A DNA stretch of 64,000 nucleotides from an uncultured Candidatus Rokubacteria bacterium. GTDB taxonomy: Bacteria; Methylomirabilota; Methylomirabilia; Rokubacteriales; DASRDR01. A model generated the notes under the pieces. The model saw only the letters and a program-made list of their open reading frames with translations. It made no database searches and was not told the DNA's origin. Below, one piece after another: positions 1 to 56,631 of the stretch. How positions within the stretch are numbered: the first letter of the stretch is position 1; each line of letters starts with the position of its first letter. A program made the translations under genes and the position numbers. The stretch lies in the NCBI GenBank assembly GCA_963708025.1, contig CAVPSB010000003.1:1-64000 (forward strand), in the 5' to 3' direction.

Positions 1-87
1 GGAGTCGCCCACCGCAGGCGTATGCCGCATACGCCGAGGATGGGCGACGACCGAGGACGACGCGATGCGAAGCTCATCGGTCCCGCG
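1..87. repeat. Palindromic repeat family C, copy 1 (truncated at window edge)
   Basis: Near-identical to the reverse complement of 55883-56006 and similar to 27984-28107; nested stems gtcgccca/tgggcgac and gcgtatg/catacgc. Confidence 0.85.
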
Positions 88-1941
88 CTACCCGAGGTCG
101 GCTTGGCGGCGTCGCGGTGCCCGCGAGATTCCGACGATCTTGCCGTTCCGGCGCGCCCGCCGGCTCTCGCCGTCGGCCGCGTGCGCCACCGGCCAGCCTC
201 CGGTGCCGGTCAGACGCTTGGACGCCTGCACGAGCGCTTCCGTCCCCGGGCGTGGGCTGGTGGCCGCCGGCTCCGCGCGACTGTCGTAGAAGCGGGCGAT
301 CTCGGCCAGCCGGGCCACCGGGATCTGGCCGAACGCCTGGGTGACCGTGGGGTCGAACTGGGTCCCCGCGAGCCGGAGGACCTCGGCGACGGCAGTGTCG
401 ATCGACATGGCGCTGCGGTAGGGCCGGTTCGAGGTCATGGCGTCGAAGGCGTCGGCGACCGCGATGACGCGGGCGGCCAGCGGGATCTTGTCGCCCTTCA
501 GCCCGTCGGGGTAGCCCTGGCCGTCGTAGCGCTCGTGGTGCGCCTTGATGACCTCGGCTTCCTGGGCGAGGAAGCGCAGCGGCCTGAGGATCCGCGCTCC
601 GTTCACCGGGTGCGCACGCATGAGGGCCGATCCCTCGTAGGTCAACGCCCCCGGCTGCCGGTACACCGAGTCGTTGATCACCAGCTTTCCGAGGTCGTGC
701 AGGACGCCGGCCCGTCGCGCCATCGCCACCTGGTTCGCCGAGAGACCCATGGCCTTGGCGATCTCGCCCGCGTAGAGCGACACCCGGGCCGAATGGCCCT
801 TGAGGTACAGGTCCTTGGCTTCCAGGGCGATGACGAACGACGAGATCGTATCGATGACGTTGCTCTCCAGGCTTTCGCCGAGCAGGACCTTCTGGAGCGC
901 GACCGCGATGGTCCGGGCATAGCCGGGCAGCAGCGCCTTCTCGTCGGGCTGGAAGGCGGTGCCGGCCTTCCGGCCCACGCACAGGAGGCCCATGGGCTTC
1001 TCGGTCCCCGGGATCACCGTGACGACCGCCGCGAAGCCTCGGGCGTTCCCGTTGAGGATCGCGGCCTCGATGTCGCCGGTCCGGTACAGCTCCTCGCCGG
1101 CGCCATTGACGGTGGTCAGCAGCTCGGCGGCGAGCGCCCGGTCGCCGAACTGGGTGGCGGTCGGGTTGCCATCCTGGTCGTGAAGCAGGGCCACGCCGGC
1201 GTCGCCGGTGAGACCGCGAACGGTCTGCTCCAGGGCCTGCTCCAGGAACGTCCCGGTGTCGAAGCCCTGGAGCGCGATGTCCCCGATCCGGAAGAGGGCC
1301 TCGAGGCCGAACGGCGCGCGACCGACCAGGTCCGGTTGGGCCTGCTGGGTCCCCGGCACCGGCTGGCGGCGGTCCTCCTGGAGGCGGCGGAGAAGCTGCT
1401 GCACCTGATCCAGCGCCTTGTCCAGCGAGAGAGCCTGGATGTCGGCGAGGGCGGGGTCAACCACGCGCCCCGGGGGCGAGGCCGCGGTCCGGGGGCGGGC
1501 CGGCTCCTCCGGTGGGCTCGCCGGCGCGCTTCGCCGCAGGCGATCGTCCTGGACCCGCTGGATGAGCCGCTGGACCTCGTCGACGGTGAACGGCTTCTTC
1601 AGGTAGTCGTAGGCCTGGTTCCGGAGGCCGACGACGAGCGGCTCGGCGGCGGCCGCCCCCGTGAGCACGACCGGCGCCCCCAGCTGCTTGGCCTTGACGG
1701 CGCGCAGCAGCTCGGCCGCTCCGAGTCCCGGTAGCTCGACGTCGGCGACGACGAGGTCGAATGGCTGGCCGGGGGTCGCGAGGAGCTGCAGGGTGTCCTC
1801 GGCGGTGGAGGCCGTGGCCGCCACGCAGCCGTTCGAGGTGAACGCGAAGGCCATGAAGCGGAGGACCAGGGAGTGAGGGTCGATCAGCAGGACGCGTAAT
1901 TCCTGGAGGCCTCGCGGCCCAACGCCCTGGTTGTCGGTCAT
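88..1941 (-). CDS. Response regulator receiver + HD-GYP c-di-GMP phosphodiesterase (central GAF-like region)
   Basis: N-terminal REC (VADVELP, KKPF); HSARV, HDLGK, HHERYDGQGYP, DAFDAMTSNRPYR motifs intact. Confidence 0.9.
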   Translation of the reverse strand: MTDNQGVGPRGLQELRVLLIDPHSLVLRFMAFAFTSNGCVAATASTAEDTLQLLATPGQPFDLVVADVELPGLGAAELLRAVKAKQLGAPVVLTGAAAAEPLVVGLRNQAYDYLKKPFTVDEVQRLIQRVQDDRLRRSAPASPPEEPARPRTAASPPGRVVDPALADIQALSLDKALDQVQQLLRRLQEDRRQPVPGTQQAQPDLVGRAPFGLEALFRIGDIALQGFDTGTFLEQALEQTVRGLTGDAGVALLHDQDGNPTATQFGDRALAAELLTTVNGAGEELYRTGDIEAAILNGNARGFAAVVTVIPGTEKPMGLLCVGRKAGTAFQPDEKALLPGYARTIAVALQKVLLGESLESNVIDTISSFVIALEAKDLYLKGHSARVSLYAGEIAKAMGLSANQVAMARRAGVLHDLGKLVINDSVYRQPGALTYEGSALMRAHPVNGARILRPLRFLAQEAEVIKAHHERYDGQGYPDGLKGDKIPLAARVIAVADAFDAMTSNRPYRSAMSIDTAVAEVLRLAGTQFDPTVTQAFGQIPVARLAEIARFYDSRAEPAATSPRPGTEALVQASKRLTGTGGWPVAHAADGESRRARRNGKIVGISRAPRRRQADLG

Positions 1942-27898: not shown

Positions 27899-27983
27899 CA
27901 ACCGCCAGCCGGGCCGATTCCGCGGGCCTCGGCCGGCACGCTCACTCAGGCTCCCTCCGGTTCGCCAGACGTGTCCGTGCATT

Positions 27984-28107
27984 GCACCGGGCCGAGACCC
28001 GAGCAGCCCTAGGACGCAGGGAGGAGGCGGGCCGAGGCGTATGCCTCATACGTTGAGGCCCGCCGACGACCGAGGACGACGGGATGCGACGGGTCTCGGC
28101 CCGGTGC
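27984..28107. repeat. Palindromic repeat family C, copy 2
   Basis: Perfect 18-bp terminal inverted repeat gcaccgggccgagacccg/cgggtctcggcccggtgc; shares ctaggacgcaggga and gacgaccgaggacgac with the other copies. Confidence 0.85.
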
Positions 28108-28110
28108 CGC

Positions 28111-29826
28111 TCACTCCTCGGACTCCTCGTGGGTGACCCGCTGGACCTCGTCGATCGTGGTGACCCCCGCGCAGCACTTCGCCCAGCCGTCTTGTCGCAG
28201 CGTCTGCATCCCGGCGGCGATCGCTCGCTGACGGATCTCGTGGCCGGGGGACTTCCGCAGGGTCAGGGAGCGGAGCTCCTCGGTCATGGGAAGGAATTCG
28301 TAGATGCCGGTCCGCCCGCGGTAACCGGTGCCGCGGCAGTCGGCGCAGCCCTTGCCGCGGAAGAGGGTGACGCCGCGGGGCAGGGCCTCGATCCCCACCG
28401 TTCGCAGATCCTTGCCCTCCGGTTCGTACGCCAGACGGCAGGCGGCGCAGATGATCCGGACGAGGCGCTGGGCCAGGACGCCCTCGAGGACCGACGAGAC
28501 CAGGAACGGCTCGGCGCCCATGTCGAGGAGGCGGGTGAGGGCGCCCGGCGCGTCGTTCGTGTGGAGCGTGGAGAAGACGAGGTGGCCGGTCAGCGCCGCG
28601 TGAATGCTGATGTCGGCCGTCTCCAGGTCCCGGATCTCACCGACCATGATCACGTCCGGGTCCTGGCGGACGATGTGACGGAGCCCGGACGCGAAGGTCA
28701 GCCCGATCTTGGGCTTCACGTGGATCTGGTTGACGCCTCGGAGCTGGTATTCCACCGGGTCCTCGATCGTGATGATCTTCTTCCCGGGGGAGTTGATCTT
28801 GTCCAGCGCGGCGTAGAGGGTCGTCGTCTTGCCGGACCCCGTGGGCCCGGTGACGAGGAGCATGCCGTGCGGGAGCTGAATCAGGCGCTCGATGTAGCGC
28901 TGGGTCCGGGGGTCGAAGCCGAGCCGCTCGAAGGGCATGAGCACGGTGGCGCGGTCGAGGATCCGCATCACCACGCTCTCGCCGTGGATGGTCGGGATGG
29001 TCGACACGCGGATGTCGAGCTTCCGCCCCTGGAGGTTCATCCGGATCCGACCGTCCTGGGGGAGCCGCCGCTCCGCGATGTTCAGCTCGGCCATGATCTT
29101 GATGCGCGAAGTGACGGCGGCCTTCAGCCGCTTGGGCGGGGTCTCGGCGTCGAACAGCACCCCATCGATCCGGTAGCGGACCCGCAGGTTGTCCTCGAAG
29201 GGCTCGATGTGGATGTCCGAAGCATCCGAGGTGACGGCGTTCTCGATGAGCAGGTTGACCAGGCGGACGACGGGAGCGTCGAAGGCCATGTCGCGCAGCG
29301 AGTTGACGTCCTCGCCGCTGGCCTCCTCGCCGGCCCAGTCGTCGTCACGGATCGTCTCGATGACTTTCTGGACCGCCGTGGTCCCGCTGCCGAAGTAGCG
29401 CTCGATCGCCTCCAGGATGGCGGGCTCGGTGGCGACGGCCAGGCGGACCTCCAGCCCGAGCACCGTGCGCAGCTCGTCAGGGGGCACCGGATCCAGGGGG
29501 TCCGCGCAGGCGATCAGGAGGGTCCCGTTCTCGACCGAGAGCGGGCAGAAGCGGTACTGCCGCATGTAGTGCGGGGAGAGGTTCTTGATGAACGGCGGGC
29601 TCGAGGGGAACTCCTCCCGGCTCACGTAGCCGACCGACAGGCGCCGGGCCAGGGCCTGGGCGATCTCCTCGGGCGTGCAGTACCCCAGGCGAACGATGGC
29701 GTCGGCCAGCCGCTCGCCGGTAGCCCGGTGGCGCTCTTCCGCTCGTGCCAGGTCCGGCTCGGACAGAATGCCGGCGGCCGTCAGCCATTGGCCGAAGGGG
29801 GTGTCCGGGGTCACTGCCATGTTCAA
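28111..29826 (-). CDS. gspE: Type II secretion ATPase GspE
   Basis: ASDIHIEP, RLPQDGR, GPTGSGKTTT, EDPVEY, DPDVIMVGEIRD, HLVFSTLHTN, tetracysteine motif. Confidence 0.96.
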   Translation of the reverse strand: MNMAVTPDTPFGQWLTAAGILSEPDLARAEERHRATGERLADAIVRLGYCTPEEIAQALARRLSVGYVSREEFPSSPPFIKNLSPHYMRQYRFCPLSVENGTLLIACADPLDPVPPDELRTVLGLEVRLAVATEPAILEAIERYFGSGTTAVQKVIETIRDDDWAGEEASGEDVNSLRDMAFDAPVVRLVNLLIENAVTSDASDIHIEPFEDNLRVRYRIDGVLFDAETPPKRLKAAVTSRIKIMAELNIAERRLPQDGRIRMNLQGRKLDIRVSTIPTIHGESVVMRILDRATVLMPFERLGFDPRTQRYIERLIQLPHGMLLVTGPTGSGKTTTLYAALDKINSPGKKIITIEDPVEYQLRGVNQIHVKPKIGLTFASGLRHIVRQDPDVIMVGEIRDLETADISIHAALTGHLVFSTLHTNDAPGALTRLLDMGAEPFLVSSVLEGVLAQRLVRIICAACRLAYEPEGKDLRTVGIEALPRGVTLFRGKGCADCRGTGYRGRTGIYEFLPMTEELRSLTLRKSPGHEIRQRAIAAGMQTLRQDGWAKCCAGVTTIDEVQRVTHEESEE

Positions 29827-41600: not shown

Positions 41601-41876
41601 AGCCCCGAGCTCCGGACAGAGGGGCTCGCCCGCGAGCTGGTGCGGCACATCCAGGACGCGCGCAAGAACGCGGGCTTCCAGATCGCCGATCGCATCGCGG
41701 TCTACCTCTCCGGCGGGGCCGATCCGGTCGCGGCGGCGGTCCGCGAGTGGGGCGACTATATCCGCACGGAGACGCTGGCCGACGAGGTGGCGCTGGCCGA
41801 ACCCCCGCCGGGTGCCCACACCGAGACCTTCGAGCACGACGGCGCGGCGATCGTCCTCGGAGTCTCGCGCCGCTAG
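38656..41876 (+). CDS. ileS: Isoleucine-tRNA ligase, type 2 (4 apparent frameshifts at 40120-40545)
   Basis: [65 protein letters not shown], spread over three frames. Confidence 0.95.
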
Positions 41877-41922
41877 CTGACTCGTTGAAGCCTCAAAGTC
41901 ATGGTGGATGAGTCACGTTCTC

Positions 41923-42074
41923 GGGGCCGAGCCGAGGACGACCATAGGTCGGACCGACGCCCCCAGGCCGAAGGCCGTCCGCCCCAGGCCGAAGGCCGTC
42001 CAATCGACGTCGGCCGAGCGCGTCCCGGCCGAGATGAACGTTGCGACGCTCATCGGCTCGGCTCGGCCCTGCCC
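41923..42074. repeat. Chimeric palindromic element (family C-like ends with two tandem GGCCGAAGGCC modules)
   Basis: 3' end tgcgacgctcatcgg...ccctgccc matches family C; tandem gccccaggccgaaggccgtcc x2 at 41959-42001. Confidence 0.7.
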
Positions 42075-55028: not shown

Positions 55029-55883
55029 ATGCTGAGCGCCCGCCGGCCGGTCCCGCCGCGCCACGAGTACCGGTTCGGAACCCAGGAGCTGGTGACGTGT
55101 GTCGCGGCGTTCCTGCTGATCTGGGCCCTCACGTTCGTCTTCGGCTTGCTGGTGGGTCGGGAGCTGTCCGGATCCACCCGGGGACGCGCCGGAGGGAGCG
55201 AGCCGAAGTCGGCCCTGGCCGCCACGGCGCCCGACGCCGAGCGGCTGCCGCCGGGAACGCCGGCCCGGAAGCCGGAGCGGGGTGGGTCCCCGGAGCGGAG
55301 CGGGTCGCCGGAGCGGAGCGGGTCGGAGGACCAGTTGACGTTCTACAAGACCCTCACGGCACCGACGCTCGATCTGCCCGCGACCGCGGCGCATCCCCCG
55401 AAGATCGAGGAGCGGATGGTGCCCCACGAGGCGCCGCCCGCGGTCGCCGCTGCCGTGGAGCCCCGCCCCAGCGCCCCGCCCGCTCCCGCGCCGGTGGTCA
55501 AGAGCCCCGCGCCCAGCGCGCGGAAGCCGGTCCGCGAGCCAGCCGTCGCCCCGACCCCGGAGCGGCGGGCGGCACCGCCACCCCCGGCCCCCGCGGCCCC
55601 CCCGGTCCCCGCGGCCCCGGCCGCCGACCCTGCGGCCGCCAGGCCCTGGACCGTCCAGGTCAGCTCCTTCCGCAGCCGGGCCCTGGCCGACGAGCTGCGG
55701 GGCCAGCTCGCGGCCAAGGGGTTCGACGCCTACATGGTCTCGGTCACCACCGAAGAGGGCCGGGTGCGCCACCGGGTCCGGGTCGGCGGGTTCACCACCC
55801 GCGCCGAGGCCGAGCGCGTGGCCGGTGAGCTGCGGGGGGAGCGCAACTTGAACCCATTCGTCACCACTCGTTCCCGGAGCTAG
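55029..55883 (+). CDS. SPOR-domain (FtsN-like) membrane protein
   Basis: N-terminal TM, LTFYKTL, Pro-rich linker, WTVQVSSF..HRVRVGGF; classic argS-SPOR pairing. Confidence 0.88.
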   Translation: MLSARRPVPPRHEYRFGTQELVTCVAAFLLIWALTFVFGLLVGRELSGSTRGRAGGSEPKSALAATAPDAERLPPGTPARKPERGGSPERSGSPERSGSEDQLTFYKTLTAPTLDLPATAAHPPKIEERMVPHEAPPAVAAAVEPRPSAPPAPAPVVKSPAPSARKPVREPAVAPTPERRAAPPPPAPAAPPVPAAPAADPAAARPWTVQVSSFRSRALADELRGQLAAKGFDAYMVSVTTEEGRVRHRVRVGGFTTRAEAERVAGELRGERNLNPFVTTRSRS

Positions 55884-56006
55884 GGCAGGGCCGATGAGCG
55901 TCGCATCGCGTCGTCCTCGGTCGTCGCCGATCCTCGGCGTACTCGGAGTACGCCTGCGGTCGGCGACTCCCTGCGTCCTAGCGCTGCTCGCTCCTCGGCC
56001 CTGCCC
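55883..56006. repeat. Palindromic repeat family C, copy 3
   Basis: Terminal IR gggcagggccga/tcggccctgccc; apical ggcgtact/agtacgcc. Confidence 0.88.
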
Positions 56007-56055
56007 ACGAGACTCATCTGCCGTCACGGTTGGCGCCTAAAGGAGCCGAGGGTTC

Positions 56056-56631
56056 GTGCAGCAGAAAAGCGTGACTCGGGCTTCCCACGAGCCCCCCGGC
56101 GTCAGGCGGGTCCTGATCACCGCGGACGAGCTGGCGTCCCGGGTCGGCGAGCTGGGTCGGCAGATCAGCGCCGACTACACCGACCGGGAGCCGGTCCTGG
56201 TCGGCGTCCTGACCGGCGCCGTGGTGTTCCTGGCCGACCTGATGCGCGCGATCGAGGTGCCGCTCCAGTGCGAGCTGATGGGCGTCTCCTCGTACGGCAG
56301 CTCCTCCCAGTCGTCCGGGATCGTGAAGATCACCGCCGACCTGCCCGTCTCCATCGAGGGCCGCCACGTCCTCATCGTCGAGGACATCATCGACACCGGC
56401 CGGACGATCAACTATTTGAAGCGCAACCTGGAGACCCGCCATCCGCGGACCCTGCGCATCTGCACGCTCCTCGACAAGATCGAGCGCCGCGAGGTGCCGG
56501 TCGACCTCGACTACGTGGGCTTCACCATCCCGAACGAGTTCGTCGTCGGCTACGGCCTCGACCACGCCGGGCTCCACCGGAACCTCCCCTACCTCGCGGC
56601 GCTGGATCTCGCGCGCCGCGACGAGGGGTGA
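56056..56631 (+). CDS. hpt: Hypoxanthine phosphoribosyltransferase
   Basis: VGVLTGA..FLADL, SSYG, LIVEDIIDTGRT, LLDK, FVVGYGLD. Confidence 0.96.
   Translation: MQQKSVTRASHEPPGVRRVLITADELASRVGELGRQISADYTDREPVLVGVLTGAVVFLADLMRAIEVPLQCELMGVSSYGSSSQSSGIVKITADLPVSIEGRHVLIVEDIIDTGRTINYLKRNLETRHPRTLRICTLLDKIERREVPVDLDYVGFTIPNEFVVGYGLDHAGLHRNLPYLAALDLARRDEG

Follow-up and report, generated by a model that had tools for sequence, protein, structure and literature searches.

Family C, a Hairpin Repeat Family Docked on Stop Codons in an Uncultured Rokubacteria-like Soil Bacterium

Family C is a family of inserted hairpin elements with a unit of about 120 nt and about 235 loci in the source genome, and the 5' ends of these elements are docked, in the sense orientation, on the stop codons of the genes upstream. 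The placement rule is nearly absolute and is much stricter than for ordinary bacterial repeats. Bacterial palindromic repeats (REP, BIME, ERIC and MITEs) are usually called "extragenic" in a loose sense; here the repeats lie within a few bases of the stop codon and follow the strand of the gene. The rule applies throughout an entire class of uncultured soil bacteria; the element sequence is better conserved than the neighboring genes. This poses the question of whether a DNA element finds stop codons, whose frame is read only by the ribosome, or whether selective filtering is very sharp. The explanation preferred here, to which we give about an even chance, is that family C consists of small, modular, non-autonomous REP/MITE-like elements which dock sense-wise on stop codons and are co-transcribed as a 3' or intercistronic hairpin. 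A literature search for the family in Rokubacteria/Methylomirabilota found no description of it.

Copies in the window and placement across the genome

The source genome, from a Methylomirabilota/Rokubacteria-like uncultured soil bacterium, is 99.7% complete. The window, which is the entire 64,000-nt stretch of DNA analyzed, contains three copies (c1, c2 and c3) and a fourth, variant member of the family (Table 1). A preliminary description of the window had placed the three copies 0-3 nt from stop codons, all sense to the upstream gene, and inspection of the sequence confirmed this. The c3 hairpin consists of an outer stem, two internal-loop regions, an inner stem and an apical stem. Its 5' end is the G of the SPOR-gene TAG, which lies one codon earlier in element-free relatives, and its tail extends to the GTG start (56056) of a phosphoribosyltransferase gene. 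The stretch between c2 and gspF contains a short second hairpin similar to the outer stem of the element and, 1 nt past the c2 hairpin, an ATG in the gspF frame; in five relatives the gspE TAG overlaps the gspF GTG. The tail of the variant member carries a 9-codon mini-ORF, and this member is preceded by AAG with no adjoining stop codon.

Table 1. Family C features in the window and the gene ends they adjoin; names of the genes flanking c1, c2 and c3 were assigned from Pfam.
Feature	Position	Strand	Remarks
Copy c1, subfamily 1	1..87	-	5' arm and apex only; the contig start cuts off the rest
TAG stop of response-regulator/HD-GYP-type gene	88..90	-	c1 adjoins directly
85-nt stretch between c2 and the conserved gspF ATG (27898-27896)	27899..27983	-	missing in relatives
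Copy c2, subfamily 2 hairpin	27984..28107	-	between gspE and gspF; 97% identity to copies in other genera
TGA stop of T2SSE/GspE gene	28111..28113	-	followed by G (TGAG); 3 nt before the c2 hairpin
Fourth, variant family member	41875..42073	-	5' terminal module with nested small hairpins and 3' tail; central core missing
TAG stop of SPOR-domain gene (gene 55029-55883)	55881..55883	+	the AG of this stop forms the element's conserved 5' edge motif
Copy c3, subfamily 1	55884..56006 (start 55883/4)	+	long imperfect hairpin; best nhmmer hit, 122 bits
c3 3' tail, diverged copy of the subfamily-1 tail	56007..56055	+	AAGGAG Shine-Dalgarno-like motif

A search of the source genome with nhmmer gave 343 hits, which were merged to 235 loci, 153 of them full length. 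Genes were called with a home-made codon-usage caller (5881 genes, 75% coverage), and because of this the "start" sides and some of the arrangement classes are rough in the counts that follow. At 169 loci the element had a stop on its 5' side and a start on its 3' side, and at 19 these were exchanged; two stops flanked 35 loci, two starts flanked 10, and 2 lay at contig ends. Between co-directional genes the sense orientation was therefore found at 169 of 188 loci (binomial p = 3e-31); together with 35 convergent and 10 divergent sites, this is a REP-type placement.

The stop codon lay -3 to +12 nt from the 5' end of the element at 102 of the 235 loci. At a further 59 it lay 41-95 nt away; nearly all of these are copies whose left arm holds an additional, nested hairpin, and in such copies (about 55 loci) the true 5' module again adjoins the stop. 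The ORF was terminated by a TGA within the element at 8 loci. In total, about 165 of the 235 loci were docked, with the 5' end 0-12 nt behind the stop of a long ORF, compared with 3.65 +/- 1.9 of 235 (maximum 11) in 200 trials of random placement in non-coding DNA. The exceptions are the 19 reversed copies and about 45 non-stop copies. In 16 relatives, 30 of 40 copies had the stop of an ORF of at least 128 codons 0-5 nt before the 5' end. The preliminary description had named random orientation and distance genome-wide as the outcome that would refute its rule; on both counts the rule passed this test.

The 5' edge of the element bears a conserved AG that overlaps with the stop, either as TAG or as TGA followed by G. 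This (T)AG stands 9 nt ahead of a CCGAT anchor, and the preceding base is not fixed. Genome-wide, 187 anchors had a long-ORF stop 1-13 nt upstream (mode 9 nt), of which 131 were TAG, 51 TGA and 5 TAA (TAG background 30%, p = 4e-29), and 31 of the 51 TGA stops were TGAG (background 39%, p = 0.002). By an eye count, AG was also present at the fixed anchor distance, as NAG, in about 10 of about 30 non-stop copies.

At the other end, subfamily 1 has a 3' tail of about 50 nt that includes a motif resembling a Shine-Dalgarno sequence, AAGGA/GAGGA, and closes with a stop triplet, usually -4 to +9 nt from the start of the next gene; the next in-frame start was at this distance from the tail stop in 34 of 56 cases. 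A mini-ORF was found in 53 of 145 subfamily-1 tails, with 8 codons in 40 of these, a frame which is kept although the peptides vary, and its stop was TAG in 38 of the 53. Thus, in many copies TAG...TAG brackets the hairpin and tail. No conserved tail of this kind was found in subfamily 2. A sigma-70 promoter in the tail, considered for a TTGACT-like hexamer, was rejected: the c3 scan gave no promoter-like site and no -10 box was seen by eye in the consensus tail.

Insertion at orthologous sites and maintenance of the hairpin

Family C elements are inserted DNA, present or absent at orthologous sites between strains and genera. Both flanks were found in genomes of genus g5 for 11 of the 15 source-genome loci checked, and all 11 sites were empty there. 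At empty sites the upstream ORF terminates at the identical codon or one codon away, and the element-free junctions range from overlapping TAGTG or TGATG to a spacer of about 31 nt (9 of 10 forward sites). For example, 55883 is joined to 56057 in a contig of an RNA library (about 97% alike), so that the c3 hairpin and its tail are absent together. The joint carries 6 other letters and there are about 3% mismatches, and the contig is thus read as an element-free strain and not as RNA processing. In another case, the flanks of a filled site (C33) and an empty site (C4) were 93-94.5% identical; in this pair the former stop stands past the tail and the TAG on the left is a new one. The closely related alleles without the element number two. 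The same slot in other genomes or alleles holds different repeat families or an IS110-like element, and the element was also docked on TGA stops where relatives show TGA followed by C.

Matches were found in 24 of 31 relatives and in 44 of 201 genomes sampled from the phylum. Near-identical copies within the source genome were 96-99% identical. Copies in other genera were up to 97% identical to c2, whereas flanking genes were only about 72-79% identical to those of another genus, which bears out the sequence constraint proposed in the preliminary description. A Candidatus Methylomirabilota MAG had 6 loci with an exact 18-nt core pattern. This pattern was rejected as a marker of the family; it is too unspecific in high-GC genomes, and among the 80 loci listed most were single hits in unrelated taxa. 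Metatranscriptome contigs from three studies contain pieces of the element, some fused to upstream sequence ending in TAG; being assembled contigs with possible DNA carry-over, these RNA runs cannot reveal transcription, ends, strand or level.

The hairpin is maintained by compensatory changes. For c3 the predicted folding energies are -82 (+ strand) and -88 kcal/mol (- strand), with z scores of -5.5 and -8.5, respectively, and none of 200 shuffled c3 sequences was as stable on either strand. Covariation of the stems had been claimed beforehand and was upheld by changes on both sides in 24 of 43 pairs, matched by 0 of 500 shuffles. Selection on the structure, also proposed, is supported by 255 compensatory cells, compared with 81.8 in shuffles and 44-57 in slid controls, and, at a single locus compared across six orthologous copies, by 4 compensatory pairs. 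In addition, the conserved C/U-rich character of the unpaired positions on the mRNA strand was verified, with 1416 of 1790 unpaired cells (79%) being pyrimidines. A wobble test for strand preference gave 192 G-U/U-G cells and 143 A-C/C-A cells, which is no clear preference; selection could thus act on single-stranded DNA of either strand. The Rfam check suggested in the preliminary description, carried out with permissive E-values on 55600-56300, returned a best score of 16.2 bits (E 2.1), below the threshold of 37; this is at chance level and matches no known RNA family.

Candidate explanations for the docking

The reading as non-autonomous, co-transcribed elements is preferred in this manuscript, and its steps are as follows. 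The element would be part of the upstream gene's transcript and would work there as a hairpin in the RNA that closes the cistron; like REPs, it may shield the transcript's 3' end, or it may be a site of processing or punctuation between cistrons. The tail may restore translation start signals, or the coupling that would otherwise be lost by insertion into tight operons; if it does restore translational coupling, family C is a naturally occurring, portable module for the space between cistrons. Only sense copies would be kept because an antisense copy would expose purine-rich, Shine-Dalgarno-like loops and misplace the tail. A 3' stabilizer, however, needs no 0-5 nt spacing from the stop, so function alone leaves the precision unexplained. 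Other counterpoints to an RNA role are that the mini-ORF occurs in a minority of tails, noted above, and that subfamily 2 has no conserved tail.

A possible but rather doubtful alternative is that the elements are purely selfish DNA. A putative single-strand DNA transposase or recombinase would insert the folded hairpin in one orientation at (T)AG or at T-purine-purine, by the enzyme logic of IS200/IS605, IS91 or integron attC, with the hairpin and loops as its recognition structure rather than an RNA signal; purifying selection would then clear copies in genes and promoters, so that the copies at stop codons remain. Several results suit this proposal. First, TAG is enriched at the 5' edge, and AG is kept at the fixed anchor distance in some of the non-stop copies. 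Secondly, the tail also tends to end in TAG, and TAG...TAG resembles a target duplication. Third, the covariation without strand preference suits folded single-stranded DNA. Lastly, the near-identical copies within the genome and in other genera suit recent activity or transfer, and the slot elsewhere holds other repeats or the IS110-like element.

However, the proposed enzyme and a parent element were sought with the following results. The Y1 transposase/RAYT domain (PF01797) gave 0 matches in the source genome and in five element-rich relatives (G001, G002, G003, G005 and G006), in a search in which control genomes gave matches; the 11 genomes out of 31 with matches were mostly poor in elements. 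Pairing of the 5' and 3' terminal motifs at most 6 kb apart found no autonomous copy, and the 5' ends that were unpaired or had only a distant partner, 19 in number with at most 1 mismatch to the motif, were truncated fragments; with 3 mismatches to the 5' motif most hits were due to chance. No parent IS of the element was found among the large repeats of the source genome (105 merged regions, at least 400 bp, at least 90% identity), and only 5 of the 105 regions were near elements, these being near-duplicate regions and not IS copies. A 1.55-kb repeat with a DUF222-HNH protein and a 1.1-kb repeat (8 matching segments, no Pfam match) were rejected as parent elements, neither having a link to the elements.

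The supply of targets also argues against this proposal. The source genome has 1775 stop-codon TAGs; of the other TAGs, 34776 fall within genes and 14029 outside the called ones. With so few TAGs at stop codons, a TAG target combined with purifying selection needs an extra filter of roughly 5- to 10-fold and was rejected as the sole cause. In addition, a TAG target does not fit the docking at those TGA stops for which the TGA of relatives precedes a C, and the right TAG of the tail persists unchanged beside a left TGA stop, so simple TAG target duplication fails.

A further alternative, which we regard as improbable, is a translation device, in which the stop lies at one foot of the hairpin and a start or mini-ORF lies past the other, so that terminating ribosomes would cross the base and re-initiate. 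Such a device would be a mobile bacterial analogue of ribosome shunting or termination-reinitiation which keeps operon genes coupled, with the CaMV shunt and T4 gene 60 as parallels. It is consistent with the coupled ancestral junctions (TAGTG, TGATG or short spacers at 9 of 10 forward sites), with the stop-to-hairpin distance kept at 0-5 nt, with the c2 ATG in frame with gspF, with the position of the tail stop near the next start, and with the 8-codon frame kept despite varied peptides. However, 35 copies lie between convergent genes, where there is no downstream gene to couple, and no Shine-Dalgarno motif is evident for the mini-ORF itself, which 92 of 145 tails lack. There is likewise only a slim chance that the docking itself is caused by translation and not by a DNA target, the elements being a mobile "stop-hairpin-restart" cassette whose tail mini-ORF passes ribosomes downstream. 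The 5' (T)AG would then take over termination of the upstream gene and the hairpin would bring that stop near the next start, so that overlapping stop/start junctions in operons could be invaded without loss of coupling. If true, family C would be a bacterial transposable element built around ribosome termination and re-initiation.

It is very unlikely that family C is a U-tract-less (I-shaped) terminator or Rho-related signal spread as a repeat, like the terminator-like SPRITE repeats: the sense orientation, the terminator-type location, the very stable GC-rich hairpin and the C-rich unpaired bases on the RNA would agree with it, but co-directional genes flank 169 of 235 copies, often in operons such as gspE-gspF with its overlapping ancestral junction, where termination would silence the downstream gene, a scan of 55700-56200 for intrinsic terminators found 0 terminator-like sites and no T-run, with C-rich sequence after the hairpin, and the tail bears translation signals for the next gene.

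Comparison with known repeats and consequences for annotation

The closest comparison is with GTAG-tagged REP elements and BIMEs. According to Di Nocera et al. (2013, PMC3733652), these are GC-rich palindromes present in hundreds of copies between co-directional or convergent genes, mostly downstream of ORFs and plausibly transcribed, whose GTAG termini often supply a TAG stop. Family C shares the palindromy, the copy number, the siting downstream of ORFs and the terminal (T)AG used as a stop. However, a REP unit is 20-40 nt with a 5' GTAG, whereas the family C unit, with TAG at 131 of 187 anchors, is longer by a factor of three to five, contains asymmetric internal loops that are conserved as well as optional nested hairpins, has a 3' tail in one subfamily and is about 90% sense. 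It is also conserved, with identities up to 97%, throughout a bacterial class, and no RAYT was found in the genomes rich in it.

REPINs are inverted REP doublets mobilized by RAYT, with a hairpin of about 100 nt, a high copy number and compensatory change. Family C likewise has a long two-arm hairpin, many copies and compensatory changes, but its arms are not themselves REP hairpins and the RAYT is missing; to our knowledge, REPINs have not been reported as locked on stop codons. The ERIC/IRU sequences of enterobacteria are imperfect palindromes of about 125 nt, are intergenic and transcribed, and have size variants that arise by internal insertions at fixed points; they occur in both orientations and are not known to be tied to the stop codon. 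Family C is similar in length, palindromy and internally inserted variants, and no sequence relation was seen (no Rfam match).

The MIRUs of mycobacteria are intercistronic operon repeats in one orientation, with small ORFs overlapping the stop and start codons of their neighbors. The subfamily-1 tail with its mini-ORF resembles these small ORFs, but family C elements are hairpins and MIRUs, which are tandem direct repeats, are not. Integron attC sites, such as the Vibrio cholerae repeats of about 124 nt, are imperfect palindromes of about 120 nt with a conserved structure, directly behind an ORF and in one orientation. Family C shares this size, palindromy, siting at the ORF end and single orientation. 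However, its copies lie scattered over most contigs, following syntenic housekeeping genes, and not in tandem cassette arrays, and no integron core sites (RYYYAAC ... GTTRRRY) were seen at the ends of c2 and c3.

The elements also have consequences for annotation. They change where genes end, supply downstream genes with N-terminal extensions or small ORFs, and break assemblies, as at c1, which lies at a contig end.

Placement of family C at stop codons

Family C, a hairpin-forming DNA repeat of about 120 nt, docks on stop codons in a near-absolute, base-precise and strand-locked manner across a bacterial class. It does so without a RAYT, the Y1 transposase (PF01797) that mobilises REP/REPIN repeats; no PF01797 match was found in the source genome or in five element-rich relatives. 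The source genome bin (8.17 Mb, 49 contigs, high GC; completeness 99.7%, contamination 8.2%) was searched in two nhmmer rounds, and the 343 hits were merged into 235 loci, 153 of them full length. Strand calls were clear, at about 100 bits or more versus 25-38 bits on the opposite strand. Genes were called by a codon-usage log-odds score (5881 genes, 75% of the genome), for which stop positions are safe and start positions rough. A stop on the element's 5' side and a start on its 3' side were found at 169 loci and the reverse at 19, while 35 loci had stops on both sides, 10 had starts on both sides and two lay at contig ends. The preliminary description had proposed a stop-proximal placement in one orientation, and random orientation and distance clearly fail as an account of these data: 169 of 188 loci are in the sense orientation (p = 3e-31), and a stop lies at -3 to +12 nt from the element's 5' end at 102 loci versus 3.65 +/- 1.9 of 235 expected for random placement in non-coding DNA. 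At a further 59 loci the stop is 41-95 nt away; almost all of these, as read from the locus listing, carry an extra hairpin nested within the left arm, and in copies of this kind the true 5' module is again 0-6 nt behind the stop. At eight loci the upstream ORF enters the element and terminates at a TGA within CCGATGAGC. An independent count used the 5'-terminal anchor motif (CCGAT) across the whole source genome; 187 of 305 anchors, some of which are chance matches, lie 1-13 nt, most often 9 nt, behind the stop of an ORF of at least 80 codons.

The copies c1, c2 and c3 named in the preliminary description were confirmed in the window, positions 1-64000 of contig C3, with neighboring genes identified by Pfam, and a fourth, variant member was found. 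The variant has two tandem small hairpins of the GGCC-TTCG-GGCC type and a 3' tail with a 9-codon mini-ORF; it is located between divergent genes and preceded by AAG and not TAG. In the stretch behind c2, an ATG 1 nt past the hairpin is in frame with gspF and possibly gives its product a 29-residue N-terminal extension. The same stretch holds a second short hairpin resembling a solo outer stem of family C, with a GAGTGAGCG-like flank before it, as c2 has.

Family C members and an associated stretch in the window
Feature	Position	Strand	Context
c1	1-87	-	Incomplete at contig start; directly behind TAG of response-regulator/HD-domain gene
85-nt stretch	27899-27983	-	From c2 to conserved gspF start; absent from relatives
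c2	27984-28107	-	3 nt behind TGA of T2SSE/GspE gene; upstream of T2SSF/GspF gene
Variant member	~41875-42073	-	Central core absent
c3	55884-56006	+	5' end at TAG stop of SPOR-domain gene

The stops adjoining family C are TAG in 131 cases, TGA in 51 and TAA in five, while the genome background is 1775, 3791 and 315, respectively (TAG excess, p 4e-29). The distance from stop to anchor is most often 9 nt for TAG and 10-11 nt for TGA, and TGA is followed by G at 31 of 51 element-adjacent stops versus 39% in the background (p 0.002). These distances place an AG at a fixed position overlapping the stop; the 5' edge of family C includes (T)AG. About 30 true copies have no stop at the edge, and roughly 10 of them, counted by eye, show AAG, CAG or GAG there. 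Family C is in this respect like the GTAG-tagged REPs, whose termini often supply the TAG stop according to the excerpt of PMC3733652. A TAG-specific target combined with purifying selection is insufficient as the sole cause, because TAGs elsewhere outside called genes (14029) and within genes (34776) far exceed the 1775 at called stops. The TAG share of called stops is 30% (1775/5881), which seems high for such a GC-rich genome. Since at least 131 of these TAGs lie at family C edges, stop-codon usage may be skewed by family C itself.

Empty and filled sites

Fifteen loci were compared with near-complete genomes of another genus with few copies (g5). All 11 loci with both flanks found were empty in g5, and the other four had no two-sided match; by these alignments, family C is evidently inserted DNA. 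The end of the upstream ORF at the 10 forward sites coincides with that in element-free genomes, except that at c3 it comes one codon later. For C23:26814, where the g5 C-termini have diverged, the comparison rests on an empty site in the element-rich relative G003. Ancestral spacers were very short: the gspE TAG overlaps the gspF GTG in element-free genomes, another site has a TGATG overlap of stop and start, and the rest measure 4-31 nt with one exception at 80-117 nt. Empty genomes have TAG as the stop at about six sites and TGA at the remainder. Three cases, two from the g5 comparisons plus the contig pair C33/C4, have TGA in the empty allele and TAG beside the element in the source genome. 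For c3, an RNA-library contig (about 97% alike) has 55883 joined to 56057, with six other letters, and lacks hairpin and tail together.

Contigs C33 (filled) and C4 (empty) belong to the same bin and have flanks 93-94.5% identical. The empty allele has TGA and a 38-nt spacer; in the filled one, TAG is followed by the element and its tail, which ends in TAG, and then by 3 nt and a TGA. This order suggests that the unit was inserted just before the old stop, bringing its own. The other sites fit insertion just behind the stop. Duplicated stretches at 93-99% identity (C33/C4, C40/C13 and C30/C12) fit the contamination estimate and suggest that the bin is a mix of two related strains.

The slot after the stop is an insertion hotspot, as its varied occupants indicate. 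In five element-rich genera it holds family C variants, other hairpin repeats or nothing. In the source genome, C13:384217-385520 and C40:10300-10495 are two nearly identical alleles of the same locus. A family C element stands 2 nt behind a TAG stop in one of them; in the other, an IS110-like insertion of 1.3 kb, with another palindromic repeat (GGGAGAGGG type) on its flanks, sits 5 nt behind the same TAG. Other GC-rich hairpin families, of the G7-TCTTCCGAGA-C7 and TCGGAGGGGG...CCCCCTCCGA types, occur near gene ends, for example downstream of C17:35134 and C13:23568 and at L161 of the relative G005. In relatives these sometimes fill the slot held by family C in the source genome.

Hairpin structure and 3' tail

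The c3 copy folds into a long imperfect hairpin at -82 kcal/mol on the plus strand (z -5.5) and -88 kcal/mol on the minus strand (z -8.5). Family C has two main subfamilies; in many copies the two internal loops hold optional small hairpins whose apex is of the GGCC-TTCG-GGCC type, and some copies have a larger additional hairpin in the left arm. In an alignment of 47 copies (seven from the source genome and 40 from 16 other genomes), standard pairs fill 91% of pair cells versus 77% in shuffles. The covarying stems reported earlier hold in this alignment: both partners change in 24 of 43 pairs, and cells with such changes number 255 versus 81.8 +/- 7.8 in shuffles, none of 500 reaching 255, and 44-57 with slid partners. 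Six orthologous copies behind one gene in six g5 genomes contain four compensatory pairs. Pyrimidines make up 79% of the unpaired columns when read on the mRNA strand, which also agrees with the preliminary description. Wobble counts of G-U and A-C (192 vs 143 of 4633 cells, 101 distinct copies) favor neither strand. Thus, the covariation proves a hairpin and is silent on whether RNA or single-stranded DNA is the relevant form.

Subfamily 1 extends about 50 nt past the hairpin in a tail with an AAGGA/GAGGA motif that ends mostly in TAG. An ATG-initiated mini-ORF is kept in 53 of 145 such tails, with eight codons in 40 of the 53, varied peptides, and stops that are TAG in 38, TGA in 10 and TAA in five. 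The downstream gene has its first in-frame start at -4 to +9 nt relative to the stop triplet of the tail in 34 of the 56 loci that could be evaluated. Where genes converge, the CTAG of the tail is often the stop of the opposite gene.

Distribution, possible role and search for a mobiliser

Family C matches occur in 24 of 31 relatives. In an even sampling of the phylum they occur in 44 of 201 genomes (43 of 200 without the unpublished genome G067) and in six of 12 families, all of one class. An exact-pattern scan gave multiple matches in only one MAG, a Candidatus Methylomirabilota. Identity to c2 reaches 97% in copies from other genera, while gspE and gspF beside it share 72-79% identity with g5. 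Among 40 copies from the top of the relatives' match list, drawn from 16 genomes, 30 have their 5' end 0-5 nt behind the stop of an ORF of at least 128 codons (TAG 20, TGA 9, TAA 1).

The majority of copies are in sense orientation within strings of co-directional genes or where such strings end, and no T-run was found behind the hairpin. For these reasons these copies are almost certainly transcribed together with the upstream gene, as far as sequence can tell. The best-supported reading is that of a REP-like 3' or intercistronic RNA hairpin. A transcribed copy would form an imperfect hairpin of about 55 bp at the end of the upstream cistron, the tail would repair the start signals of the downstream gene, and spread would proceed by a mechanism preferring stop codons. 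The main rival is that family C is purely selfish DNA and the hairpin is the recognition structure of a putative enzyme. A bolder proposal has the stop, the hairpin and the restart codon working jointly on the ribosome.

The kind of element is already known from REP/BIME/ERIC/MITE-like palindromic repeats, as are TAG-providing REP termini. The size, modular build, tail and base-precise, strand-locked stop docking without a RAYT go beyond the REP descriptions in the excerpt of PMC3733652, and no published description of family C was found in the literature.

PF01797 matches were present in 11 of 31 genomes, mostly element-poor. In the source genome no paired family C ends enclosing a gene were found, and the larger repeats had no link to family C. 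One of 1.1 kb (C49:195597-196699) has eight matching segments and no Pfam match. A separate repeat of 1.55 kb, with four copies (C13:513892-515448 and three others), encodes a DUF222 and HNH endonuclease protein and resembles the REP13E12-type repeats of mycobacteria.
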